A DNA stretch of 64,000 nt. Origin: Abditibacterium sp. GTDB lineage: Bacteria; Armatimonadota; Abditibacteriia; Abditibacteriales; Abditibacteriaceae. A program made the translations under genes and the position numbers. Every line of letters begins with the position of its first letter. Within the stretch, counting starts at the first letter, position 1. The stretch spans positions 3,776,001-3,840,000 of the forward strand of contig CBDASK010000003.1 in NCBI GenBank assembly GCA_965199495.1, given 5' to 3'. The notes under the pieces were generated by a model that saw only the letters and a program-made list of their open reading frames with translations, was not told where the DNA came from and did not search any database. Below, in pieces: positions 12,104 to 57,243 of this stretch.

Positions 12104-12487
12104 ATGGCCATCGTTAAAACCACAACCAGAGAAAACGGCAAAGGCGGCGGTTCCGGCGAAACAACCGAAACCACCGTGCCCATTGACCGCACCAAATCGG
12201 TCGTCCGTCAAGGAGGTTCGCCGACCGGGCGCCCCATGCGCACGCCGGGCGTCATCCAACGTCCGCAGCAAAGCACCTCCAAACCCGCGAGTCCCAAAGA
12301 TTTCATTACTGACACCATTACTGAACTCAAACGGGTCGTGTGGCCAACCAAAGAAGAGCGCATTTCGGGCACCATCGTGACCATCGGTTTGCTGCTGTTC
12401 TTCGCGATTTATATCGCGGGGTTGGATTCTCTGGCACGCGTTATTTTCGTTGGTTTAGGTATTCTCCCCTCGGACACGCTGCAATAA
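12104..12487 (+). CDS. secE: Preprotein translocase subunit SecE with long polar N-terminal extension
   Basis: ELKRVVWPTKEE followed by a TM helix; lies between tRNA-Trp and nusG. Confidence 0.93.
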   Translation: MAIVKTTTRENGKGGGSGETTETTVPIDRTKSVVRQGGSPTGRPMRTPGVIQRPQQSTSKPASPKDFITDTITELKRVVWPTKEERISGTIVTIGLLLFFAIYIAGLDSLARVIFVGLGILPSDTLQ

Positions 12488-12560: not shown

Positions 12561-13103
12561 ATGAAACAATGGTATGCCGTGCATACGTATGCCGGACAGG
12601 AAGATAAAGTTCAACAGAACATCGAAAAGCGCAGTGAAGCCGTCGGGCTTCACACGCGCATTTCGCGCGTCATCGTGCCGACCGAAGAGGTTAAATCTCT
12701 GCGCGGCGGCAAGACCGTGACGCTGAAAAAGAAAATCTTCCCCGGCTACGTTTTGGTCGAGATGGACATGGACGACGAAACTTGGCATTTCATCCGCCAG
12801 ACCGTCGGCGTGACCGGATTTCTCGGCCAAGTCACCGGCACCGCGTCGCGCCCGGCTCCGCTGCAACCCGGCGAAGTCGAGCGATTGATTGGCGGTGGCT
12901 CCGAGGACGGCATCGAAGCCACGACGACGGCGTTCTATAATACGGGCGACCATGTCAACGTGACCGCCGGGCCGTTCGCTGGTAGCGAAGGTCACATTAC
13001 CGAAGTGGATGCCGCTGGCGAGAAGTTGAAAGTCGTGATTCAGTTGTTCGGGCGCGAAATGCCGATTGATCTGGATTTCGTGAGCGTGGAACGAGTGAGT
13101 TAG
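12561..13103 (+). CDS. nusG: Transcription termination/antitermination factor NusG
   Basis: WYAVHTYAGQEDKV, KIFPGYVLVEM, KOW motif GDHVNVTAGPFAG. Confidence 0.97.
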   Translation: MKQWYAVHTYAGQEDKVQQNIEKRSEAVGLHTRISRVIVPTEEVKSLRGGKTVTLKKKIFPGYVLVEMDMDDETWHFIRQTVGVTGFLGQVTGTASRPAPLQPGEVERLIGGGSEDGIEATTTAFYNTGDHVNVTAGPFAGSEGHITEVDAAGEKLKVVIQLFGREMPIDLDFVSVERVS

Positions 13104-13108
13104 ATTCT

Positions 13109-13219
13109 AATGCGATGTAAAATCGCAGCCAAGGAAGTCGTCGGCCTTCGCCGACAGGTTGAGCTTTCTTTTGTCGGCGAAGGCCGACGACTTCCTTGGC
13201 TGCGATTTTACATCGCATT
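13109..13219. repeat. Perfect inverted repeat, family D
   Basis: 48-bp arms at 13109-13156 and 13172-13219 with a 15-nt spacer. Confidence 0.95.
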
Positions 13220-13290
13220 GAAATATACAAAACGCGAGGGAGAGCCGTTAAAAAGCTCGAATTTACACCTGGCGTTTACAGGAAGCAACA

Positions 13291-13716
13291 ATGGCAAAGA
13301 AAGTCACCGGCTTTATTAAGCTGCAATTACCCGCAGGCGGCGCGACGCCCGCACCGCCCGTTGGCCCGGCTCTGGGTCAGCACGGCGTGAACATCATGCA
13401 GTTCGTCAAAGCCTACAACGAACAGACGGCGGCCCAATCCGGCTCCATCATTCCGGTCGAAATCACGGTTTATCAGGATCGCTCGTTCACCTTCATCACC
13501 AAGACGCCGCCTGCGGCTGACTTGTTGAAGAAGGCGGCGGGCATTCCCAAAGGCAGCGACAATCCGCTCAAGAACAAAGTCGGCACAATTTCCCAAGATA
13601 AATTGAAAGAATTGGCCGAACTGAAAATGAAAGATTTGAACGCCAACGACATTGACGCGGCGATGAAAATCTTGGCTGGAACCGCCCGTTCGATGGGCAT
13701 TGAGGTGGCGAAATAA
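13291..13716 (+). CDS. rplK: 50S ribosomal protein L11
   Basis: [38 protein letters not shown]. Confidence 0.99.
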
Positions 13717-14414
13717 TGGCAAGCAAACACGGAAAACGCTATCGCGCCCTGACCGAGAAATATGATCTCGAACAGTTTTATCCGCTCGCCGAAGCAATGA
13801 CGATGGTCAAAGAGACCGCGACCGCCAAGTTCGACGAAGCCGTTGATGTCACCATCGTTTTGGGCATTGACGCGCGCAAAGGCGACCAGCAGGTTCGCGG
13901 CACGATTACTCTGCCCAACGGAACCGGCAAGACGCCGCGCGTTGTTGCCATCGCTCGCGGCGAAGCAGCCACGGCGGCGGAAGAGGCCGGAGCCGACGCG
14001 GTTGGCGCCGAAGACATCATCGCGCAGATCGAGAAAGACGAGCTGCAATTCGACGTTTTGGTCGCCACGCCCGACATGATGCGTTTATTGGCGCGTCTGG
14101 GCAAAAAACTCGGCCCACGGATGCCCAACGCGAAAAGCGGCACGGTCGGCCCCAATATCGGTTCGATTGTTTCGGATCGCAAAAAAGGCCAGATCGAATA
14201 TCGCAACGAACCCAAAGCGGCGGTCGTTCACTCCATCGTGGGCAAATCGTCGTTCGAGGCCGAGGCGTTGGTCGAGAACACGCGCGCTTTGATTCAGGCG
14301 CTGCAACGCTCGAAGCCTTCGAGCGCCAAAGGCACTTATTTACGTTCGGTGACTCTGTCTTCGACGATGGGGCCGGGCGTCAAAGTCGAAGCGGCGCCGC
14401 TTCGCCAGCAGTAA
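13716..14414 (+). CDS. rplA: 50S ribosomal protein L1
   Basis: AKFDEAVD, DQQVRGTITLPNGTGK, SSTMGPGVKV. Confidence 0.99.
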   Translation: MASKHGKRYRALTEKYDLEQFYPLAEAMTMVKETATAKFDEAVDVTIVLGIDARKGDQQVRGTITLPNGTGKTPRVVAIARGEAATAAEEAGADAVGAEDIIAQIEKDELQFDVLVATPDMMRLLARLGKKLGPRMPNAKSGTVGPNIGSIVSDRKKGQIEYRNEPKAAVVHSIVGKSSFEAEALVENTRALIQALQRSKPSSAKGTYLRSVTLSSTMGPGVKVEAAPLRQQ

Positions 14415-14437
14415 AGTAACGAGGAGACTTCATCATT

Positions 14438-14968
14438 ATGGTAGCTAAAAAATACAAGGATAAAGAAGCGCTCGTTGAAGAACTGCGCGAGAAGTTGAGT
14501 CAGGCGACCGCCGTTGTCGTCACCGAATATCGCGGTTTGAAAGCCGGCGATTTGGTGACGCTGCGTTCGGGTTTACGCGAGGCCAACGTTGAACTGCGCA
14601 TCGTCAAAAACACGTTGTTGCGCCGCGCCACAGAAGGCACGCCGCTCCACGATATGACGCTGACGCTCCAAGGCCCCAGCGCCGTGGCTCTCGCTTTTGG
14701 CGAGGCTTCGGAAGCGGCCAAAAAACTCGATGAGAACGCCGGAAAGCTCGCCGCTTTCAATCTGAAAGGCGGCGTCATCGAAAGCATGATCGTCAATGGC
14801 GACCAAGTCGCCGCGATTGCGAAACTGCCCTCCAAGTTGGAGTTGCAGGCCAAAGCCGTAGGCGCTCTGCAAGGCCCATTGTCTGGATTTGTATTCACTC
14901 TGAACGCCGTGTTGTCGAATTTCGTCGGCACGCTTCAGGCGAAGATAGACGCAGAAGCCGCGTCGTAA
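14438..14968 (+). CDS. rplJ: 50S ribosomal protein L10
   Basis: EYRGL, IVKNTLLRRA, AIAKLPS. Confidence 0.97.
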   Translation: MVAKKYKDKEALVEELREKLSQATAVVVTEYRGLKAGDLVTLRSGLREANVELRIVKNTLLRRATEGTPLHDMTLTLQGPSAVALAFGEASEAAKKLDENAGKLAAFNLKGGVIESMIVNGDQVAAIAKLPSKLELQAKAVGALQGPLSGFVFTLNAVLSNFVGTLQAKIDAEAAS

Positions 14969-15031
14969 AATAAGGTTTCAGAATAGCGCTTAATTTGGCC
15001 GAAGGTAGAGGTTTGAGGTGAGCATAGCTCA

Positions 15032-15183
15032 CACCCCCTCTATCCTTCGGACATCTCCCCCTCCGAAAGGGGGAGAGGCGGCGTGACAATCGGCACTGGT
15101 GTTACAATTGTAGCGGCGATGTCGAGGGTTAGAGCGCCTCTCCCCCTTTCGGAGGGGGAGATGTCCGAAGGACAGAGGGGGTG
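15032..15183. repeat. Inverted repeat, family E (CTCCCCCT..AGGGGGAG type), between rplJ and rplL
   Basis: 49-bp arms at 15032-15080 and 15135-15183 with one mismatch. Confidence 0.93.
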
Positions 15184-15247
15184 AGCGCGCGTCCACTTCA
15201 ATCTCTAAAATTAAAACTTTCGTCCCGCGCAAGGAAAATACAACAAC

Positions 15248-15634
15248 ATGGCAAGCGAAAAGATTCAAGGCATTCTCGACACCGTCGGTGGCCTCTCCGT
15301 TCTCGAACTCAACGAACTCGTTAAAGAATTGCAAGAGCAGTGGGGCGTCACCGCCGCCGTTGCTGGCCCCGCCGTGGCTGCGGCTGGCCCCGCCGAGGCC
15401 GCTCCCGCCGCCGAAGAGCAGACCGAATTCGACGTTATCTTGAAAGATGTCGGCGCTCAGAAGATTCAGGTCATCAAAGCGATCCGCGAAGTGCAGCCGA
15501 CCTTGGGCTTGAAAGAGGCCAAAGAAGTCGCCGACAACGCGCCCAAAGCCGTTGCCGAGGCCGTGACCAAAGAAGACGCCGAGAAAATGAAAGAGAAACT
15601 CGAAGCCGCCGGTGCGACTGTCGAACTCAAATAG
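15248..15634 (+). CDS. rplL: 50S ribosomal protein L7/L12
   Basis: [40 protein letters not shown]. Confidence 0.99.
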
Positions 15635-50007: not shown

Positions 50008-50415
50008 ATGCGCGTTTTTCCTTTTATGGCAGTTTTGGGCAATCTTTTACGTTGGCGGCGCGGCGAATCTTTAGTTCTCGCCGCGCTTTTGCTCGCGTGC
50101 CTATTCATGCCCGCTGCCGCACAGGGCGCGGTTTTGCCGCCGCAACAGGCGCACGCGGTTTTGCTGTGGCTACAAGCCGAAATGACGCCCGCCAGTGCGC
50201 CGCGCGTCGAGCAAACCGGCGATTTTCGCGCGTTATCCAATCGCGATAACAGCCCGATTTATATTTGCACCGTGCCCGTGGCTATAGCTACGCCGCCCGT
50301 AGAGGCGCGTTTGGCGGCGTTGCAAATTGAAGCGCGTCCGGTTGCCATATTTACGCTCGAATCGCACGAAGCCGCGTTTTTGACGGGCGTGCGCAATAAT
50401 CGTCGGCGCAATTGA
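50008..50415 (+). CDS. Hypothetical protein
   Basis: ORF with a hydrophobic N-terminal segment upstream of secA; no family recognised. Confidence 0.45.
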   Translation: MRVFPFMAVLGNLLRWRRGESLVLAALLLACLFMPAAAQGAVLPPQQAHAVLLWLQAEMTPASAPRVEQTGDFRALSNRDNSPIYICTVPVAIATPPVEARLAALQIEARPVAIFTLESHEAAFLTGVRNNRRRN

Positions 50416-50551
50416 AAAGCCGCGAAGATGCTCCCACAGAAACACCGACTTGTCGTGTCTAAAAATGGTGGAATTGCTTCAAAACTGCGGCGATTCCACC
50501 GTTTTAGACGCGATGAATCGCCGTCTCTACGGGAGCATCTTCGCGGCTTTT
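50415..50551. repeat. Family B inverted repeat copy 2, nested in a terminator-like outer stem
   Basis: Outer aaaagccgcgaagatgctccc / gggagcatcttcgcggctttt; inner acaccgacttgtcgtgtctaaaa...ttttagacgcgatgaatcgccgtctctac like 1395-1492. Confidence 0.85.
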
Positions 50552-50598
50552 TTGTTCCTTCACGACCCCCAACTCAATATCTCAAAGATAGATAAATC

Positions 50599-53500
50599 AT
50601 GTCACTGTTAAAAAAAATTTTCGGCTCGTCTGCCGACATCTCCAGCTCCGATACCAAAGGCCAGGGAGTTTTGGGCGCCGTGTCGCGCCTGTTCGATAAA
50701 AACGAAAAAGAGATCGCCCGACTGCGACCGACGGTCGAGAAAATCGGCCAAATTGGAACCGAACTCAAAGGTCTCTCCGACGACGAAATCAAAGCCCGCT
50801 CGCTCAAACTCAAGGCGACTTTTCAGGAAAAAGTCACGCAGCGTTTGAAGGCGCAGGGACTGGAATGGCAGGATTTGTCCGCCCAGAAAGATTGGGACGA
50901 CGCTTATAATAAAGCGCGTCTGGACGCCGAAAAAGCGACATTGGGCGAACTTTTGCCCGAAGCATTCGCCCTCGTGCGCGAAGCGGGCGACCGCACCATT
51001 GGGTTGCGACATTTTGATGTGCAGATCATTGGCGGCGCGGCTTTGCACGAAGGCACCATCACCGAAATGCGGACGGGCGAAGGCAAAACATTGGCAGCCA
51101 CGGCGCCCGCTTATCTTAATGCGTTGACCGGGCGCGGCGTGCATTGTGTGACCGTCAACGATTATTTGGCCGAGCGCGATGCCAACTGGATGCGCCCGGT
51201 TTACGAATTTCTGGGACTTTCTGTCGCGTTTTTGCAAAACGACATGGAGCCAGCCGACCGGCGCGTGGCCTATGCCGCCGACCTTTTGTATGGCACTAAC
51301 TCGGAGTTTGGCTTCGATTATCTGCGCGACAACATGGCGCGCTCGCCCGAAGATATGGTGCAGCGCCCGCTCAATTTCGCCATCATTGACGAGGTAGATA
51401 ACATCCTGATTGACGAGGCGCGCACGCCGCTAATCATCTCGGCCCAGGTCGCCAAAACCGACCGGGCACTGCGTCGCCAAGGCATGAGCAAAACCTGCGA
51501 CGGCGTCGCCAAACAATTGATGCCCGCCATCAATGACCAGGAAGTCGAAGCGTTTATTGACGAGTATTCGACCAAAGGCCGCATCGACATCGGCGGCCTG
51601 AGCGACGCGATTTTCAACGGCGGCGCCTTTCCCCACGCGATTGGTTATTTGATCGATTCGTATCTGGCCTCAGAAAAAACCGCGCGCACCGATAACGCCG
51701 CGCACTTGCTGGACGCCGCCGACGAACTGTTCGCCGATAAATTGATTAACCAAGTCGGCAAGGACGAACTGGAAAAAATGGCCCTAACCGCCACTCGTCC
51801 GCAGTTGTTGAATGAAGCGTGGCGCGGCGAAGTCGAGCATATTCTGGAACCGTTCGAGATGGCGTGGCTCAACGCGCGCGACGGCGAGTGGAACGCGCAA
51901 CTGCTCGCGCACGATTTGACTTTGCCTGAAGACGCGGCGTTCGATTTGGAAGAACATATTTCGCAAAGCGAAGATAAAGCCGAAGCGACTTCGCTACTGA
52001 TTGCCGACGAAATGGCACGCCGTGGCTACATCGAGCAGGACGGCGTTGACGCGATTGCGGGCGCGCTGCAAAACGGGCGCGATGCGTTGCGATTGGCGGT
52101 TTTGGAACAGCCGGGCAGCTTGTCGGACGCCGACAAGGTTTTGAGCGAACACGTTCCGGCGGGCGAAATCAGTTCGACCGAAGATGTGCGCCGCATCGTG
52201 AGCGCGCTCGAAGCGATTACGGCGACCGGGCTGGTGCCGTTCGCCACGACCGAGAAATTGTGGAACACGGTCGAACTTTCGGCTGACCGCGACGCTCTGC
52301 GCGCGCAGTTGACGAGCGTGATCGAGAAGCAGTCGGGCGACGTGGCTACACAAATCGTCGGCTTAGTCGAAGAGTATTCCAAGTCGCGCGAGGCGTTTTT
52401 AACTTCGCAAGCCGCCACATTGCGCGACGCGTTGGGCGGACATGAAGCCGTCGTGAAGTTGGCGCAATCGGGCGCCGGAGCCGACGCGTTGAGCGCGGCT
52501 TTGCAACGCGAACTCGCCAAATCCGGCCCGTTCGCCCAGGCGACGAAAGCGTCGGCACAGTTCGTCAAAGAACAAAACGCGGCTTATGGCGCTGTCGCCG
52601 ACCATTTGATCGAGGAAATGTCGCAGTGGGTCGAGATTCCTCAGGGCGCCAAGAAAACCATCGTTTCGATTTTGGGCGAAGGCGGGCGCGCGCCCGAAGT
52701 CGCCGAACGTTTGCTGCTGGCCGTGCGCGATTTGCCGGGCGATTCGTCCGAACTGGCGGCGATTGCTCAGGATGGCGCGAACCAGTTGCAGGGGTGGCGT
52801 CACGAACAGGCGATTTCGTTCGTCGAGAAAATCGGCGGATTAGTGCCGTTGCCCGATGCAGCCACGTCCGCGATTCAAACCGCCATCGAAGACGGCGACT
52901 TTGGCACCAACGGCTTTGAAGAGTTTGTCGGCGCGCAGTTGCTTTCTTCGGAAACTATCGCGCCTTTGGCGAGTGCCATCGAAAGTTATGGCGAGGCGTG
53001 GGACGCGTTTAAAGCCAAATCAAATCAGAGTTTGATTGACAACCTCGGCGGGCGTTTGGAGATGTCGCCGGACGCGAAAATCAATCTGGGCGAACTGCTC
53101 GCCCATCCTTATAAGGGCGCGCTGATTTCGCAGATTTTCGGCACGCTCGCCGCCGACGTTGTGGCGCGCCATTTGGAGCCGCTTTTGACCGAAGAGAACG
53201 CCGGAGCGTTCACCGAAGAGATCAAGCGCCGCGTCTCGATTGTGGACTCGATTGCCAAAAAGTTGAATCCCGCCGAGTTCACCGGAAAATCCGCCGAACA
53301 GTTGATGCGCGCGGTTCAGCGTTTGGTGGTGCGCTCGCTCGAAGTTTTGGAGTTCGACAAGTACAAGCGCGTTATCAAGAACTTGGGTTGGCTAACCGAA
53401 AAAGACGAGAAGCGGCGCACCGCCGCCGTTTCGGACATGGGCGCTTTGGTCGCCGAGCGCGAAGCGGCGCGGCCCATCTTTACCGATCCCGACGGCTTTT

Positions 53501-56500
53501 TGGACACGCTATTGGCCGCCGAAATCCTGACCGAAGGCGAGGCCGTCACCATCGCGCGCGCGCAAATGGAAGCGCCCGAACTGGGCATTTCGCAGATTAT
53601 TGATACGCAATTGCGCTTGCCCGCCGAGCGTCGTCGGCGTTTGGCCGAGGCGAAGTTGCAGGAAGTTCAGTCGGTTTTGGATCAGGGAATTAAGGCGCAC
53701 GCGTTGTTTGAATACAACGTGAATTACGTGATCGGCGGCGGCAAAGAGATCGTCATCGTGGACGAATTTACCGGGCGCACCATGCCGGGCCGCCGCTTTT
53801 CCGAAGGCTTGCATGAAGCTTTGGAAGCCAAGCACGGTCTGGAAGTGCAGATCGAATCGCAGACGGTGGCGACGATCACGATTCAGAATTATTTCCGGCT
53901 TTATAACAAAATTTCGGGCCTGACCGGAACCGCGAAAACCGAGGAAGCCGAGTTTGCCAAAACTTACGGCATCGAAGTCTTAACCGTGCCGACGAATAAA
54001 CCGGTGCGCCGCGTCGATCAGCCCGACGTGGTTTATAAAACCGCCGAGGCCAAACTGCGCTTCATCACGTTTGATATTCTGGAGCATCACTGCGTCGGCC
54101 AGCCGGTTCTGGTCGGCACGCGGTCAGTCGAAATGTCCGAGCGCATGGCGCAGCGATTGTCCGCTCCAGCGCTGCAAACTTTGGTTTTGACGCATTTAAT
54201 TAAGGAACATTTGCGCGCCGACAAATCGCCCGAAGCCGACAAAGCGCCACTGTGGGAGTTCGCGCGCGCGCCGATTACCAACATTAATCCGGTGCAGGCG
54301 AAGAATTTGGCCAAGCAGATGGGCATCAATCCCGACGCGGCCAGCGACGAAAATGTGAGCGCAATTCTAAGTCAGTTCACCGTGCCCAACGCCAGCCGCG
54401 AGCGTTTGGTGGCGGCTTTGAAACAGGGTTTGCCGCACAACGTTTTGAACGCCAAAAACCATCGCAACGAAGCGCGCATCATCGCCGAGGCCGCGCGGCC
54501 CGGCGCCGTCACCATCGCCACCAACATGGCGGGACGCGGTGTTGACATCATTCTGGGCGGCAGTCTGGACGGCGAAAGCCGTTGGCGCGTTTTGACCGAA
54601 CAATTGTTGGCGCGCCAGTTGGAAGGCAAAGGCGTTCATGTCCGTTCGGTCAACGCCGAGGCGACGCAGAAGATGGCGCAGCGATTGACGCCGGATAATT
54701 TGCAAACTCTGGCTTGGGCCGTCGCGATTTCGCGCCGTGTCGAGGAAATGGAGCGCGCGGGCACCCTCGAAGGTCAGGCGGCCAAAGAGATTAAAGATGC
54801 TTTGGGCAGCGACTTGACTTCGCCCGATTATGCCAACCGCGTAAGGTCGCGCGCGCGTCGCAATAATTTGTTGGACAAATTGCCGGTCGATTTAGAGCCG
54901 CTCAATCCGCAGATTGTTGGCGAGTTGGCGCTCGAATTGGGACGGATTATGAATCACCAATACGACGCCGAATCGTTGAACTTGATGCTGCAACACGGCG
55001 TTCCGGCGCAGGAACATCAATCGCAGGACGCGCAGTTGGGCCGCGATCCGGGCGAGTTGGCGTTGCTCTACACCTTAGCCACGCCGATGTCGTTCTCGCA
55101 AAATGCCAGCGAACGCTTGCTCGAAATCTTGGCCGAAGCGCCCGATTTGGATCGGCAATTGTTGGAACTCGTGGCGACCGGACAGATGCTCAAACCCGAA
55201 GCTCTGGCCGCGAACTTGGGCGTGGTCACGCCCGATTGGGTGCAGACGCGACTGGGCGAATTGGGCGTGCCCAACGCCGACGCGGCGGCGGATCGCTTAG
55301 GCGATTTGCCGCGCGACGAAGCCGAAATTACCGAATTTCAACTGGCGCAACAAATGGGCGAAGCGTTCATGGGGACGCCGTGGCTGCGTCAGCGACTGAG
55401 CGAATGGCAATTGGTTGAGGGCGCGCGCGCGTTTGAAGGAACGGAAGAAATGCAGAACGCGCTGCAAGATCAGGCGAACGTGCATTTGCGATTGAACCGC
55501 AAAGCGGCGTTGGCCAAGCGCGAGGAATGGAACTCGCCGCAAAGCCGCCGCGAGTTGGTGGCAGTCGAGGCGCCCAATTTGGTGTTGCTGCAAGAGTTGG
55601 CCGGAGTCGTCGGGCCGGAAGCGCCGATTTTGAATCCCGAATGGCTGCACCATACGTTGAGCGGCATGAACCTCATCACCGACGAAGACGTGATGCAGGC
55701 GCAGATGCAAGCGCAAGTGCAGGATGAAGAAGGCAACCAGAGCATCCAGCCGATTGACGTTTTGGTCTACCGTTTGAAGTTGAGCGGAATGCTCGAAGCG
55801 ATCAAACCGGTTGTGCGCGAGGCGGCGAAACAGGCCGATTCGCACGATCCAACGACGGTCTTTGGCGCGTTGCAGAATGTCGCGCCGTGGTTGCCGACGT
55901 TCGTGGACGACGAATGGTTGGCGCAGACTTTGGCCGAAACGCCGGAACTGGCGTTGCCGGAAGCGACAACGGAAGAGTTGGCGGTCGCCGGGGATTCGGG
56001 CATCGTGCAGATCGAGACCGGCGTGGCTGGTCAGAGCACCGACATCGTTTTGGAAAGCGAGGCGCGGCCCGAAGACATCGCGCACACCAGCGACCGCGAC
56101 ATTATCACCGATTTGGGCGGCTTGCACATCATCGGGTCGGAGCGTCACGAGAGCCGCCGCATTGACAACCAGTTGCGCGGGCGCGCCGGTCGCCAGGGCG
56201 ATCCGGGTTCGAGCCGCTTCTACATCTCATTGGATGACGAGCTGTGGCGTCTGTTCGGCACGCGCGGCCAATTCTTGTTGAAGAGTTGGGACGAGGACGA
56301 GCCAGTCGAGGCGGGCATCATTTCCAAGCAGATCGAGCGCGCGCAGAAGAAGGTCGAGCTGAACCACTTCGAGGGCCGCAAACACGTCTTGCAATACGAC
56401 GACGTGATGAACGTGCAACGCGAAGTCATCTACCGCGAACGCCGCCGCGCCTTGCAGGGCGCTGATATCCGCGACACGGTCGTTGATATGGCGCAAAAAG

Positions 56501-57243
56501 CGGCGATAACTCAGGCCGACGCGCACGCGCCGCGCGCCGTGCGGCCCGAAGAATGGGACACGCGCAAGCTCTACTTGGGGCTGGGCAAACTGTTCGGACT
56601 GAGCGCGCTCAAAGCGCAAATTTCCGATGATGAACAGTTGGAAGAAGCGAGTTGGCAGGAGTTGCCCGACAACGCGTTGGGCAATCCCAGCTTCGACTTC
56701 ATCCTGCGCGATGGACGCGGTTTGAACGAAATCGTCGAGAAATTGTATCAAGACCGCGAACACGCGTTGGGCACCGACCAAACGCGCGGGCTGGAACGTT
56801 GGCAGGTCATGCGTTCGATTGACGAGCATTGGATGGAGCATCTGGCCGAAATGGACTATTTGCGCGATGCGATCTGGCAGCAAGGCTACGCGCAGCGCGA
56901 GCCGATTGGCGTTTATCGTCAGGAAGGTTTCGAGCTGTTCCAGAAGATGCTGGGCGAAATCCGGCGCGAAGTGACGCAGGCGATCTTCGACTATGACGTG
57001 CCCGATTTCGAGCATGAAGACGCCTCGCCCGAACTGGGCGAGATGATCGAAGCCCGATTAGTGGATGCGTTCGCTGGTGGCGACGATGGTCTGGACGACG
57101 GAACATTGTTGGCCAAAGACGCCGACGGCGTTGACAATGACTTGGTGATGACCACGCAAAACACGCGCGAGGGCGCGCCGGGCGAAGGCAATCCCGATTC
57201 GGCCAGCAACCGCGCGGCGCGGCGGGCGAAGCGGCGCGAGTAA
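50599..57243 (+). CDS. secA: Preprotein translocase ATPase SecA, giant form (2214 aa)
   Basis: [95 protein letters not shown]. Confidence 0.96.

Follow-up and report, generated by a model that had tools for sequence, protein, structure and literature searches.

The 64,000-nt window analysed here (positions 3,776,001 to 3,840,000 of contig CBDASK010000003.1, GenBank assembly GCA_965199495.1, Abditibacterium sp.) carries a secA gene encoding a giant SecA of 2214 amino acids (aa). This protein is almost certainly the housekeeping SecA of the class Abditibacteria, in which an all-helical repeat domain (insert 1) and a small knob sit in the preprotein cross-linking domain (PPXD), and a degenerate half-domain copy with a helix-turn-helix (HTH) array (insert 2) sits in nucleotide-binding domain 2 (NBD2; Table 1). 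SecA is essential and among the most conserved bacterial motors, and the giant form is a class-defining variant of it, real and apparently undescribed so far: no account of a giant SecA in Abditibacteria was found in literature of which subscription journals were mostly uncovered, and databases label the protein simply as SecA.

An original prediction, made from the letters of the window, had described a 2214-aa SecA in one frame with all core motifs, a PPXD insert of ~620 aa and a modified Sec motor. All three held: the insert measures 621 aa, and the motor is the sole SecA of its genome, occurs class-wide, keeps intact catalytic and clamp motifs and bears inserts under purifying selection. 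The inventory of inserts was correct for insert 1 and incomplete otherwise, since the 513-aa insert 2 and the ~50-aa knob had been missed. The roles suggested alongside for insert 1, as a built-in chaperone or as a substrate-selection or scaffold module, are still conjectural. The PPXD rotates by ~80–120 degrees on engaging cargo, and the giant protein carries ~620 extra residues there and ~510 on NBD2; it reveals which parts of the motor's surface are free, offers a natural test of clamp models and would make a large, asymmetric particle for cryo-electron microscopy.

Table 1 Features of the giant secA locus and of secE in the window
Feature	Position (nt)	Strand	Residues (aa)	Description
secE	12104..12487	+	127 in total	Basic low-complexity N-terminal tail tipped MAIV[KR]TT
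Leader ORF	50008..50415	+	135 in total	Signal-like N-terminus; C-terminal L[ST]G[VIT]RTN-type motif
Inverted repeat	50415-50435 / 50531-50551			Between the leader stop codon and secA; perfect, 21 bp, 95-nt loop, with a T run after it
secA	50599..57243	+	2214 in total	Single frame; sole SecA of the genome
Motor motifs			157; 263; 1055-1070; 1307; 1858; 1902-2131	Walker A; DEAD; C-loop/PP-loop; motif V; motif VI; wing/scaffold
Insert 1	51529..53391	+	311-931	PPXD; acidic, all-helical, degenerate repeat
Knob	53476..53634	+	960-1012	PPXD; four helices, ~50 aa; a conserved poly-Arg helix follows directly
Canonical N-terminal half of NBD2	54076..54564	+	1160-1322	Template of the duplication; contains Thermus-like helical insert (54160-54420)
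Insert 2	54565..56103	+	1323-1835	NBD2; 513 aa
Degenerate copy of NBD2 half	54604..55014	+	1336-1472	Near-invariant R1349; basic helix at 1414-1421
Four homologous HTH units	55135..55938	+		Two winged; Trp at 1547, 1595, 1682 and 1773; acidic
Closing strand of duplicated half	55993..56058	+		Degenerate motif V, ETGVAGQ
C-terminal tail	57004..57240	+		Metal-binding domain missing; CPCGSG absent

The giant protein retains a complete motor core

Only one SecA locus was found in the genome, which is 95% complete; a second, normal secA, proposed as a check in the original prediction, was sought and is not there. Pfam models for SecA_DEAD, PP_bind, the P-loop and the wing/scaffold (PF07516, aa 1902–2131, E 2e-55) all matched the 2214-aa ORF, and PF01043 (PPXD) exceeded its cut-off. 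The product passed the NCBIfam equivalogs for housekeeping SecA of the PRK12904/TIGR00963 type (906.6 bits against a threshold of 814, and 853.7 against 800) and scored under every SecA2 cut-off in that collection. It has no membrane helix (maximum hydropathy 1.55).

Conservation was assessed in 73 giant rows, comprising genome loci and database proteins with some duplicates. Every row had Walker A and motifs III, V and VI; for the DEAD pattern and the C-loop/PP-loop pattern the count was 70 of the 73. In the protein from the window the C-loop/PP-loop clamp sequence reads DEFTGR..GRRFSEG; the two loops make up the clamp and link it to ATP (PMC9926265). As far as sequence can tell, the core motor cycle would proceed as usual. 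Canonical SecA proteins such as those of Thermus thermophilus (2ipc) and Bacillus subtilis (1tf2) have the same motor motifs, C-loop/PP-loop, wing/scaffold and single copy, but are ~800–1,150 aa long, whereas the giants reach 2,110–2,350 aa with their 621-aa repeat domain, PPXD knob, tandem half-NBD2 and HTH array. Alignment with solved SecA structures is interrupted at aa 289–1021 and 1322–1831, and the span from DEARTP to DEFTGR amounts to ~781 aa, compared with 99–118 aa in the seven of 12 other-class genomes in which both anchors were read.

Further departures from the textbook protein proved to be less specific. Smaller additions had been predicted near the N-terminus and at 54160–54420; both exist, but comparison with normal Armatimonadota SecA showed them to be phylum-wide, the second aligning with the insert of Thermus SecA (2ipc). 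The C-terminal zinc motif CPCGSG is indeed absent, as had been noted, yet this is a secondary and common loss with no part in the phenomenon: the motif is kept in 25 of the 73 giant rows, and the metal-binding tail is missing from 39 of 156 SecAs in a published survey (10.1101/389460), which makes its loss here ordinary.

Giant SecA is confined to one class and probably descends vertically within it

Insert 1 was found in 31/31 genomes of the class Abditibacteria and in 0/270 other Armatimonadota genomes, a count that takes in one genome (G023) with the gene in five frameshifted pieces and a few others in which it is broken at contig ends. The inserts are a clean marker for the class. In G023 the frames of secA, Ffh and SecD are all frameshifted, most likely an assembly error rather than gene loss. 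SecA frames in 12 genomes of other classes measured 980–1153 aa.

Scoring of 7998 database candidates returned 41 proteins matching insert 1, all with SecA domains and 1887–2350 aa long. The PPXD span was 780–846 aa across the 73 giant rows, and the NBD2 span 388–572 aa in 72 of them. When the best 120 of 1430 long SecAs were compared, 60 were non-giants; their PPXD span, measurable in 49, came to 100–212 aa, and no match better than E 0.02 was obtained in these 60 with the profile of insert 1. A tree built from the core alone (26 rows, 5 of 31 having been dropped for missing anchors; midpoint root) placed 10/10 giants in one group on a long stem with 100/100 support, beside normal Armatimonadota SecA. 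Between families, insert identity falls to 24–31%. A single origin in the class ancestor followed by vertical descent fits these data best; two surface loops were enlarged by internal duplication in that ancestor, as the homologies described below show.

The inserts have been kept under purifying selection since the class ancestor. Across eight genome pairs, dN/dS was 0.11–0.20 for insert 1, 0.07–0.12 for the NBD2 copy and 0.07–0.20 for the HTH array, against 0.04–0.09 for the core, and GC content at third codon positions (GC3) of the inserts was 0.71–0.74, like that of the core.

Clade-marking inserts in surface loops of SecA have precedents in Thermales, Thermotogales and Aquificales, where they measure 50 and 76 aa, that of Thermus being the 76-aa one (PMC7023208); those of Abditibacteria are ~10 times larger and repeat-built, and one of them copies SecA's own NBD2. 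SecA-like domains also occur in giant Omnitrophota proteins (10.1101/2023.11.21.568195) and in secondary SecA_DEAD proteins (PMC4452313), again within overlong ORFs. As far as these sources describe them, such proteins are devoid of the wing/scaffold, often have membrane helices and stand beside a normal SecA; the giant SecA is the opposite on all three counts.

Insert 1 is an acidic array of degenerate helical units

SecA-like sequence restarts after insert 1 at a KDEK strand (aa 935), the counterpart of a short strand in the PPXD of normal Armatimonadota SecA. An AlphaFold2 model of the insert, computed from 24 sequences, is nearly all helix (pLDDT 85.8, pTM 0.72), and the net charge is −44 here and −28 to −46 in 10/10 rows. 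Profile comparison and the model together resolve about nine degenerate helix-turn-helix-loop-helix units of 60–70 aa, their limits being taken from the structural model. The units at turns 677, 749, 820 and 880 are homologous in register (5/6 pairs at E ≤ 0.009, best 2e-7; reversed controls ≤ 17 bits) and those at 381 and 476 match each other at E 1e-5 to 3e-5, the remaining units being weaker. Derivation of the units from the knob was considered and is not supported, scores being ≤ 18 and mostly out of register.

Neither Pfam nor NCBIfam yielded a family for either large insert, and Foldseek gave no match at E ≤ 0.001 for the model of either one. VIA-align matched the insert-1 model, mainly residues 304–546, to generic helical bundles (best Z 8.4); whole-insert fold searches covered only parts of each model. 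Profile searches of PDB sequences were uninformative for insert 1 and for the knob and, for insert 2, gave only weak matches to SecA. A search of the ESM Atlas produced no usable match for insert 1 or the HTH array, a blank that is uninformative. The fold predicted for insert 1 thus appears to be without a close known match, and we do not claim it as novel.

Stand-alone relatives were sought among 1.84 billion representative sequences, with 17 matches, of which six were examined. Five were giant SecA or apparent fragments of it; the other, P0057 (E 6e-5), was rejected as an unrelated Ala-rich repeat protein and taken as a composition match. No donor gene for the inserts was found in the genome itself.

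Insert 2 contains a degenerate copy of half of NBD2 and an HTH array

Insert 2 lies where NBD2 carries its variable subdomain. It opens with 137 residues that repeat aa 1160–1282 in degenerate form (HHalign probability 96%, E 3.6e-9, against E 0.26 for a reversed control). It closes with a strand, ETGVAGQ, that duplicates motif V at the colinear position (E 0.04); E, G, V, G and Q of this strand, together with D1815, are conserved in 69/69 rows. Searches with a profile of the copy recovered genuine NBD2 both in unrelated SecAs (best E 2e-12) and in this SecA, and the insert-2 model (pLDDT 85.4, pTM 0.57) could be aligned to NBD2 of Thermus 2ipc over 137 residues (Z 5.5, root-mean-square deviation (rmsd) 5.9). 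Here an enzyme has clearly duplicated one of its own RecA half-domains and put the copy to new use.

The copy is devoid of motif VI and therefore does not constitute a second ATPase. R1349 (68/69 rows), E1806 (69/69) and the Arg-rich helix at 1414–1421 are near-invariant, so that the copy presents a conserved polar face at a place that is buried in the true half; this points to a candidate binding site of its own. An alternate-frame switch, with the copy substituting for the true half, is disfavoured, as the copy has His, Arg and Glu at positions where the true half has buried Leu, Gly and Ala.

Between the copy and its closing strand, four HTH units proved homologous to one another in 12/12 comparisons (E ≤ 5e-4; reversed controls ≥ 7e-3). 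Most top-ranking fold matches of this array were winged-helix proteins (Z ≤ 5.8), two of the four units being wingless. The topology resembles that of winged-helix scaffold domains (ORC, JetABC, RPC62, ESCRT-II, Stn1-like); unlike these, the units are acidic, and with middling Z scores no family can be assigned. The array carries a net charge of −9 to −32 in 10/10 rows, which makes DNA binding unlikely. About 120 aa of it are missing from one genome (G025).

The same half of NBD2 has been copied elsewhere. P0076, a database protein of 1707 aa with a normal PPXD and a long C-terminal part, has its own tandem copy and groups with normal Armatimonadota SecA in the core tree (support 95/95), so that on the evidence of this one sequence the duplication seems to have occurred at least twice. 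Many SecAs of 1,217–1,404 aa from other lineages (P0087–P0135, P0079–P0085) have a 300–400-aa insert at the same NBD2 site, and some have a C-terminal part of at least 700 aa.

Possible functions of the inserts

We infer that both additions act as accessory binding surfaces on an ordinary SecA cycle and tentatively favour, at somewhat under even chances, a division of labour between a cargo-holding arm on the PPXD and a docking module on NBD2. ATP-driven closure of the nucleotide-binding domains would move the clamp on SecY in the usual motor cycle. On cargo engagement the PPXD rotates 82–122 degrees towards NBD2, according to modelled values (PMC7503281; see also PMC9926265), so insert 1 would follow the clamp's motion from a position in which it could lengthen the cargo groove; this position makes a holdase acting in cis our first choice. 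The arm would ride the PPXD as it swings shut, lengthening the groove, and hold unfolded mature domains before and during feeding. The NBD2 copy might meanwhile dock the motor through its Arg-rich helix on a polyanion, be it anionic lipid or the rRNA of the tunnel exit. The acidic HTH array might bind a protein partner rather than DNA. No SecB was found in the 95%-complete genome, which counts in favour of this reading. If the arm does hold cargo, it would be a cis-acting chaperone and would bear on how SecB-less bacteria keep preproteins unfolded.

Several observations weigh against this division of labour. Insert 1 has no informative fold match, no chaperone fold was among the matches listed for it, and it is its position, size and charge that suggest a holdase. 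Many bacteria with a normal SecA do without SecB (PMC5963308), which matched in 4 of 14 controls, and this genome encodes trigger factor, Ffh and SecD/F, so there is no lost chaperone to replace. SecY has no insert matching those of SecA, the inserts share as little as 24–31% identity across families, and purifying selection also fits a domain that needs merely to stay folded.

A scaffold or allosteric latch, in which the inserts contact one another, another SecA protomer or a partner specific to the lineage (such as the SecE tail) and gate the PPXD swing or the ATPase without touching cargo, is possible though doubtful. It would accommodate the acidic charge of the HTH array, the predominance of protein-scaffold domains (ORC, Jet/kleisin, ESCRT-II, RPC62; Z 4.6–5.8) among its winged-helix matches, the conserved Arg patches on the PPXD side and the MAIV[KR]TT tip of SecE in 15/15 family loci. 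That tip is missing, however, from 3/3 deeper giant-SecA genomes, both large inserts are net acidic, and no partner gene was identified.

Rather unlikely, in our estimate, is entrenched neutral growth, with repeated slippage duplications at two indel-tolerant loops that became fixed early in the history of the class, were retained for folding and confer no added function. Both loops do vary in length in other Armatimonadota (PPXD span 99–118 aa, NBD2 span 23–160 aa), the NBD2 span reaches ~300–400 aa in other long SecAs, P0076 acquired its own copy of the same half, G025 has dispensed with ~120 aa of the HTH array, and no co-evolved change was seen in the lengths of SecY, Ffh or SecD/F. Such growth would nevertheless have to account for ~1,130 extra residues of near-constant length in every genome of the class, including those of 2.4–3.2 Mb, for near-invariant polar residues in a dead NBD2 half, and for a knob whose dN/dS (0.03–0.13) is as low as that of the core in most of the eight pairs. 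A general inflation of housekeeping proteins was also considered, and was not seen for RpoC, Ffh or SecY; the ordinary size of RpoC and Ffh across the class counts against neutral growth as well.

The more ambitious extension of the division of labour would be a self-contained export machine, with ribosome docking by the half-RecA copy, a helical cradle that catches the nascent preprotein and closes over the clamp during the swing of the PPXD to NBD2 (the two inserts forming its lid), feeding into SecY and a SecA level set by the leader ORF through a new arrest class. We regard this as improbable, and equally so its corollary that such a chaperone-motor fusion would replace the hand-over from SecB or trigger factor.

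Control by a second messenger, with the PPXD knob as an MshEN-derived receptor placing export under cyclic di-GMP (c-di-GMP), is very unlikely. The knob model (residues 688–749) matches three structures of the MshEN family at rmsd 2.6–3.2 (5htl, Z 7.0, rmsd 3.2; 7lkm, Z 6.4; 8pdk, Z 6.3), shares with these four-helix bundles the hydrophobic spacing of the motif RLG...G...LxxxLxxQ and has its Gln24 in 38/47 rows; the genome, moreover, has 12 GGDEF matches. All three Z scores are below 8, though, and helical domains of the fumarase family match the same model residues at Z 5.3–5.6. Arg1 of the motif occurs in 0/47 rows and Gly3 and Gly10 in 2/47 each, and loss of the motif's Gly abolished binding in MshE (PMC5013675). 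The second half of the knob has neither an RLG nor a terminal LxxxLxxQ that would make a second motif. In a profile search no MshEN row was among the matches listed for the knob, the best of which were weak and unrelated (E ≥ 0.1). Sequence-level homology is thus not shown; the knob resembles MshEN in predicted shape, and the label of c-di-GMP receptor is not warranted. The one PilB/GspE-type ATPase with an MshEN domain in this genome (L086:1273-3180) has a degenerate N-terminal motif.

Finally, the size of the protein, far beyond the usual SecA range, might suggest an artefact, intein or mobile insertion removed from the mature product, a reading of negligible probability given an architecture shared by 31 genomes and by 41 database proteins at identities down to ~25%, no Hint or mobile-domain match, core-like GC3, an insert 2 that is SecA-derived at both ends and a single H[NQ][CST] triplet away from any boundary. 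Misassembly, splicing and a known mobile domain, named beforehand as grounds for refutation, all fail: class-wide spread, the blank Hint search and GC3 equal to the core exclude them. DNA contigs from four runs covered 30, 30, 30 and 25 of 30 bins over secA, with no piece spanning the gene, and some contigs skipped over the inserts with sides of 22–45 letters that resemble secA of other organisms; neither observation was used as evidence.

A candidate monitoring substrate upstream of secA

The leader ORF that precedes secA recurs, in position and C-terminal motif, at 18/20 loci of the family Abditibacteriaceae, and the motif was found upstream of secA at 0/4 deeper loci of the class and 0/11 loci of other classes. 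Monitoring substrates have been recognised by an N-terminal export signal and, over 30 aa further on, a conserved motif at the C-terminus, in an ORF upstream of secA (PMC10987492); the export signal of the leader was judged by eye. With SecM, ApdA/ApdP and RQH substrates the leader shares a signal-like start, a short ORF in upstream position and a conserved C-terminal motif, but the motif differs from the RAPP/RAGP type of SecM and the RQH family. The leader ORF is best described as a candidate SecM-like monitoring substrate, possibly of a new translation-arrest class, and the inserts would then be accompanied by a candidate new arrest peptide. Abditibacteria appear in the genome list of PMC10987492 (12 rows), and no entry was found for them in its candidate table (file 9). 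At two of the 11 other-class loci (L038 and L042), ORFs ending in a RAPP-type motif lie upstream of a normal secA.

The inverted repeat downstream of the leader could be a terminator or a REP-like insertion. Contig depth peaked in bin 50402–50652 in 3/4 runs, and this stretch looks multi-copy.

SecE, other export components and gene order

An N-terminal extension of SecE had also been predicted and was confirmed, 73 residues preceding the ELKRVVWP motif; its link to the giant SecA is weak. Tails of 49–80 aa with the MAIV[KR]TT tip were present at 15/15 Abditibacteriaceae loci read, but the SecE N-terminus was short or different in 3/3 deep-branching giant-SecA genomes examined, and next to normal SecA, too, the open frame extends to tails of up to 65 aa. 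The tail is not required for the giant form. Its tip, on a flexible basic tail, looks like a short binding motif.

SecY and SecE are single-copy, and the trigger factor (L089) has an acidic low-complexity C-terminal tail of ~80 aa. The secY gene (L088, G000:C3:3355996-3357423) lies outside the ribosomal-protein operon, among unrelated genes, with rplO at C3:211059-211556 and adk, together with rpsM-rpoA, from C3:3755324 onward. In the window, nusG and the ORFs that follow it, assigned as rplK-rplA-rplJ-rplL by size and order only, occupy 12561–15634; rpoC lies ~530 kb from nusG, at G000:C3:4318530, and the rif cluster looks split too.

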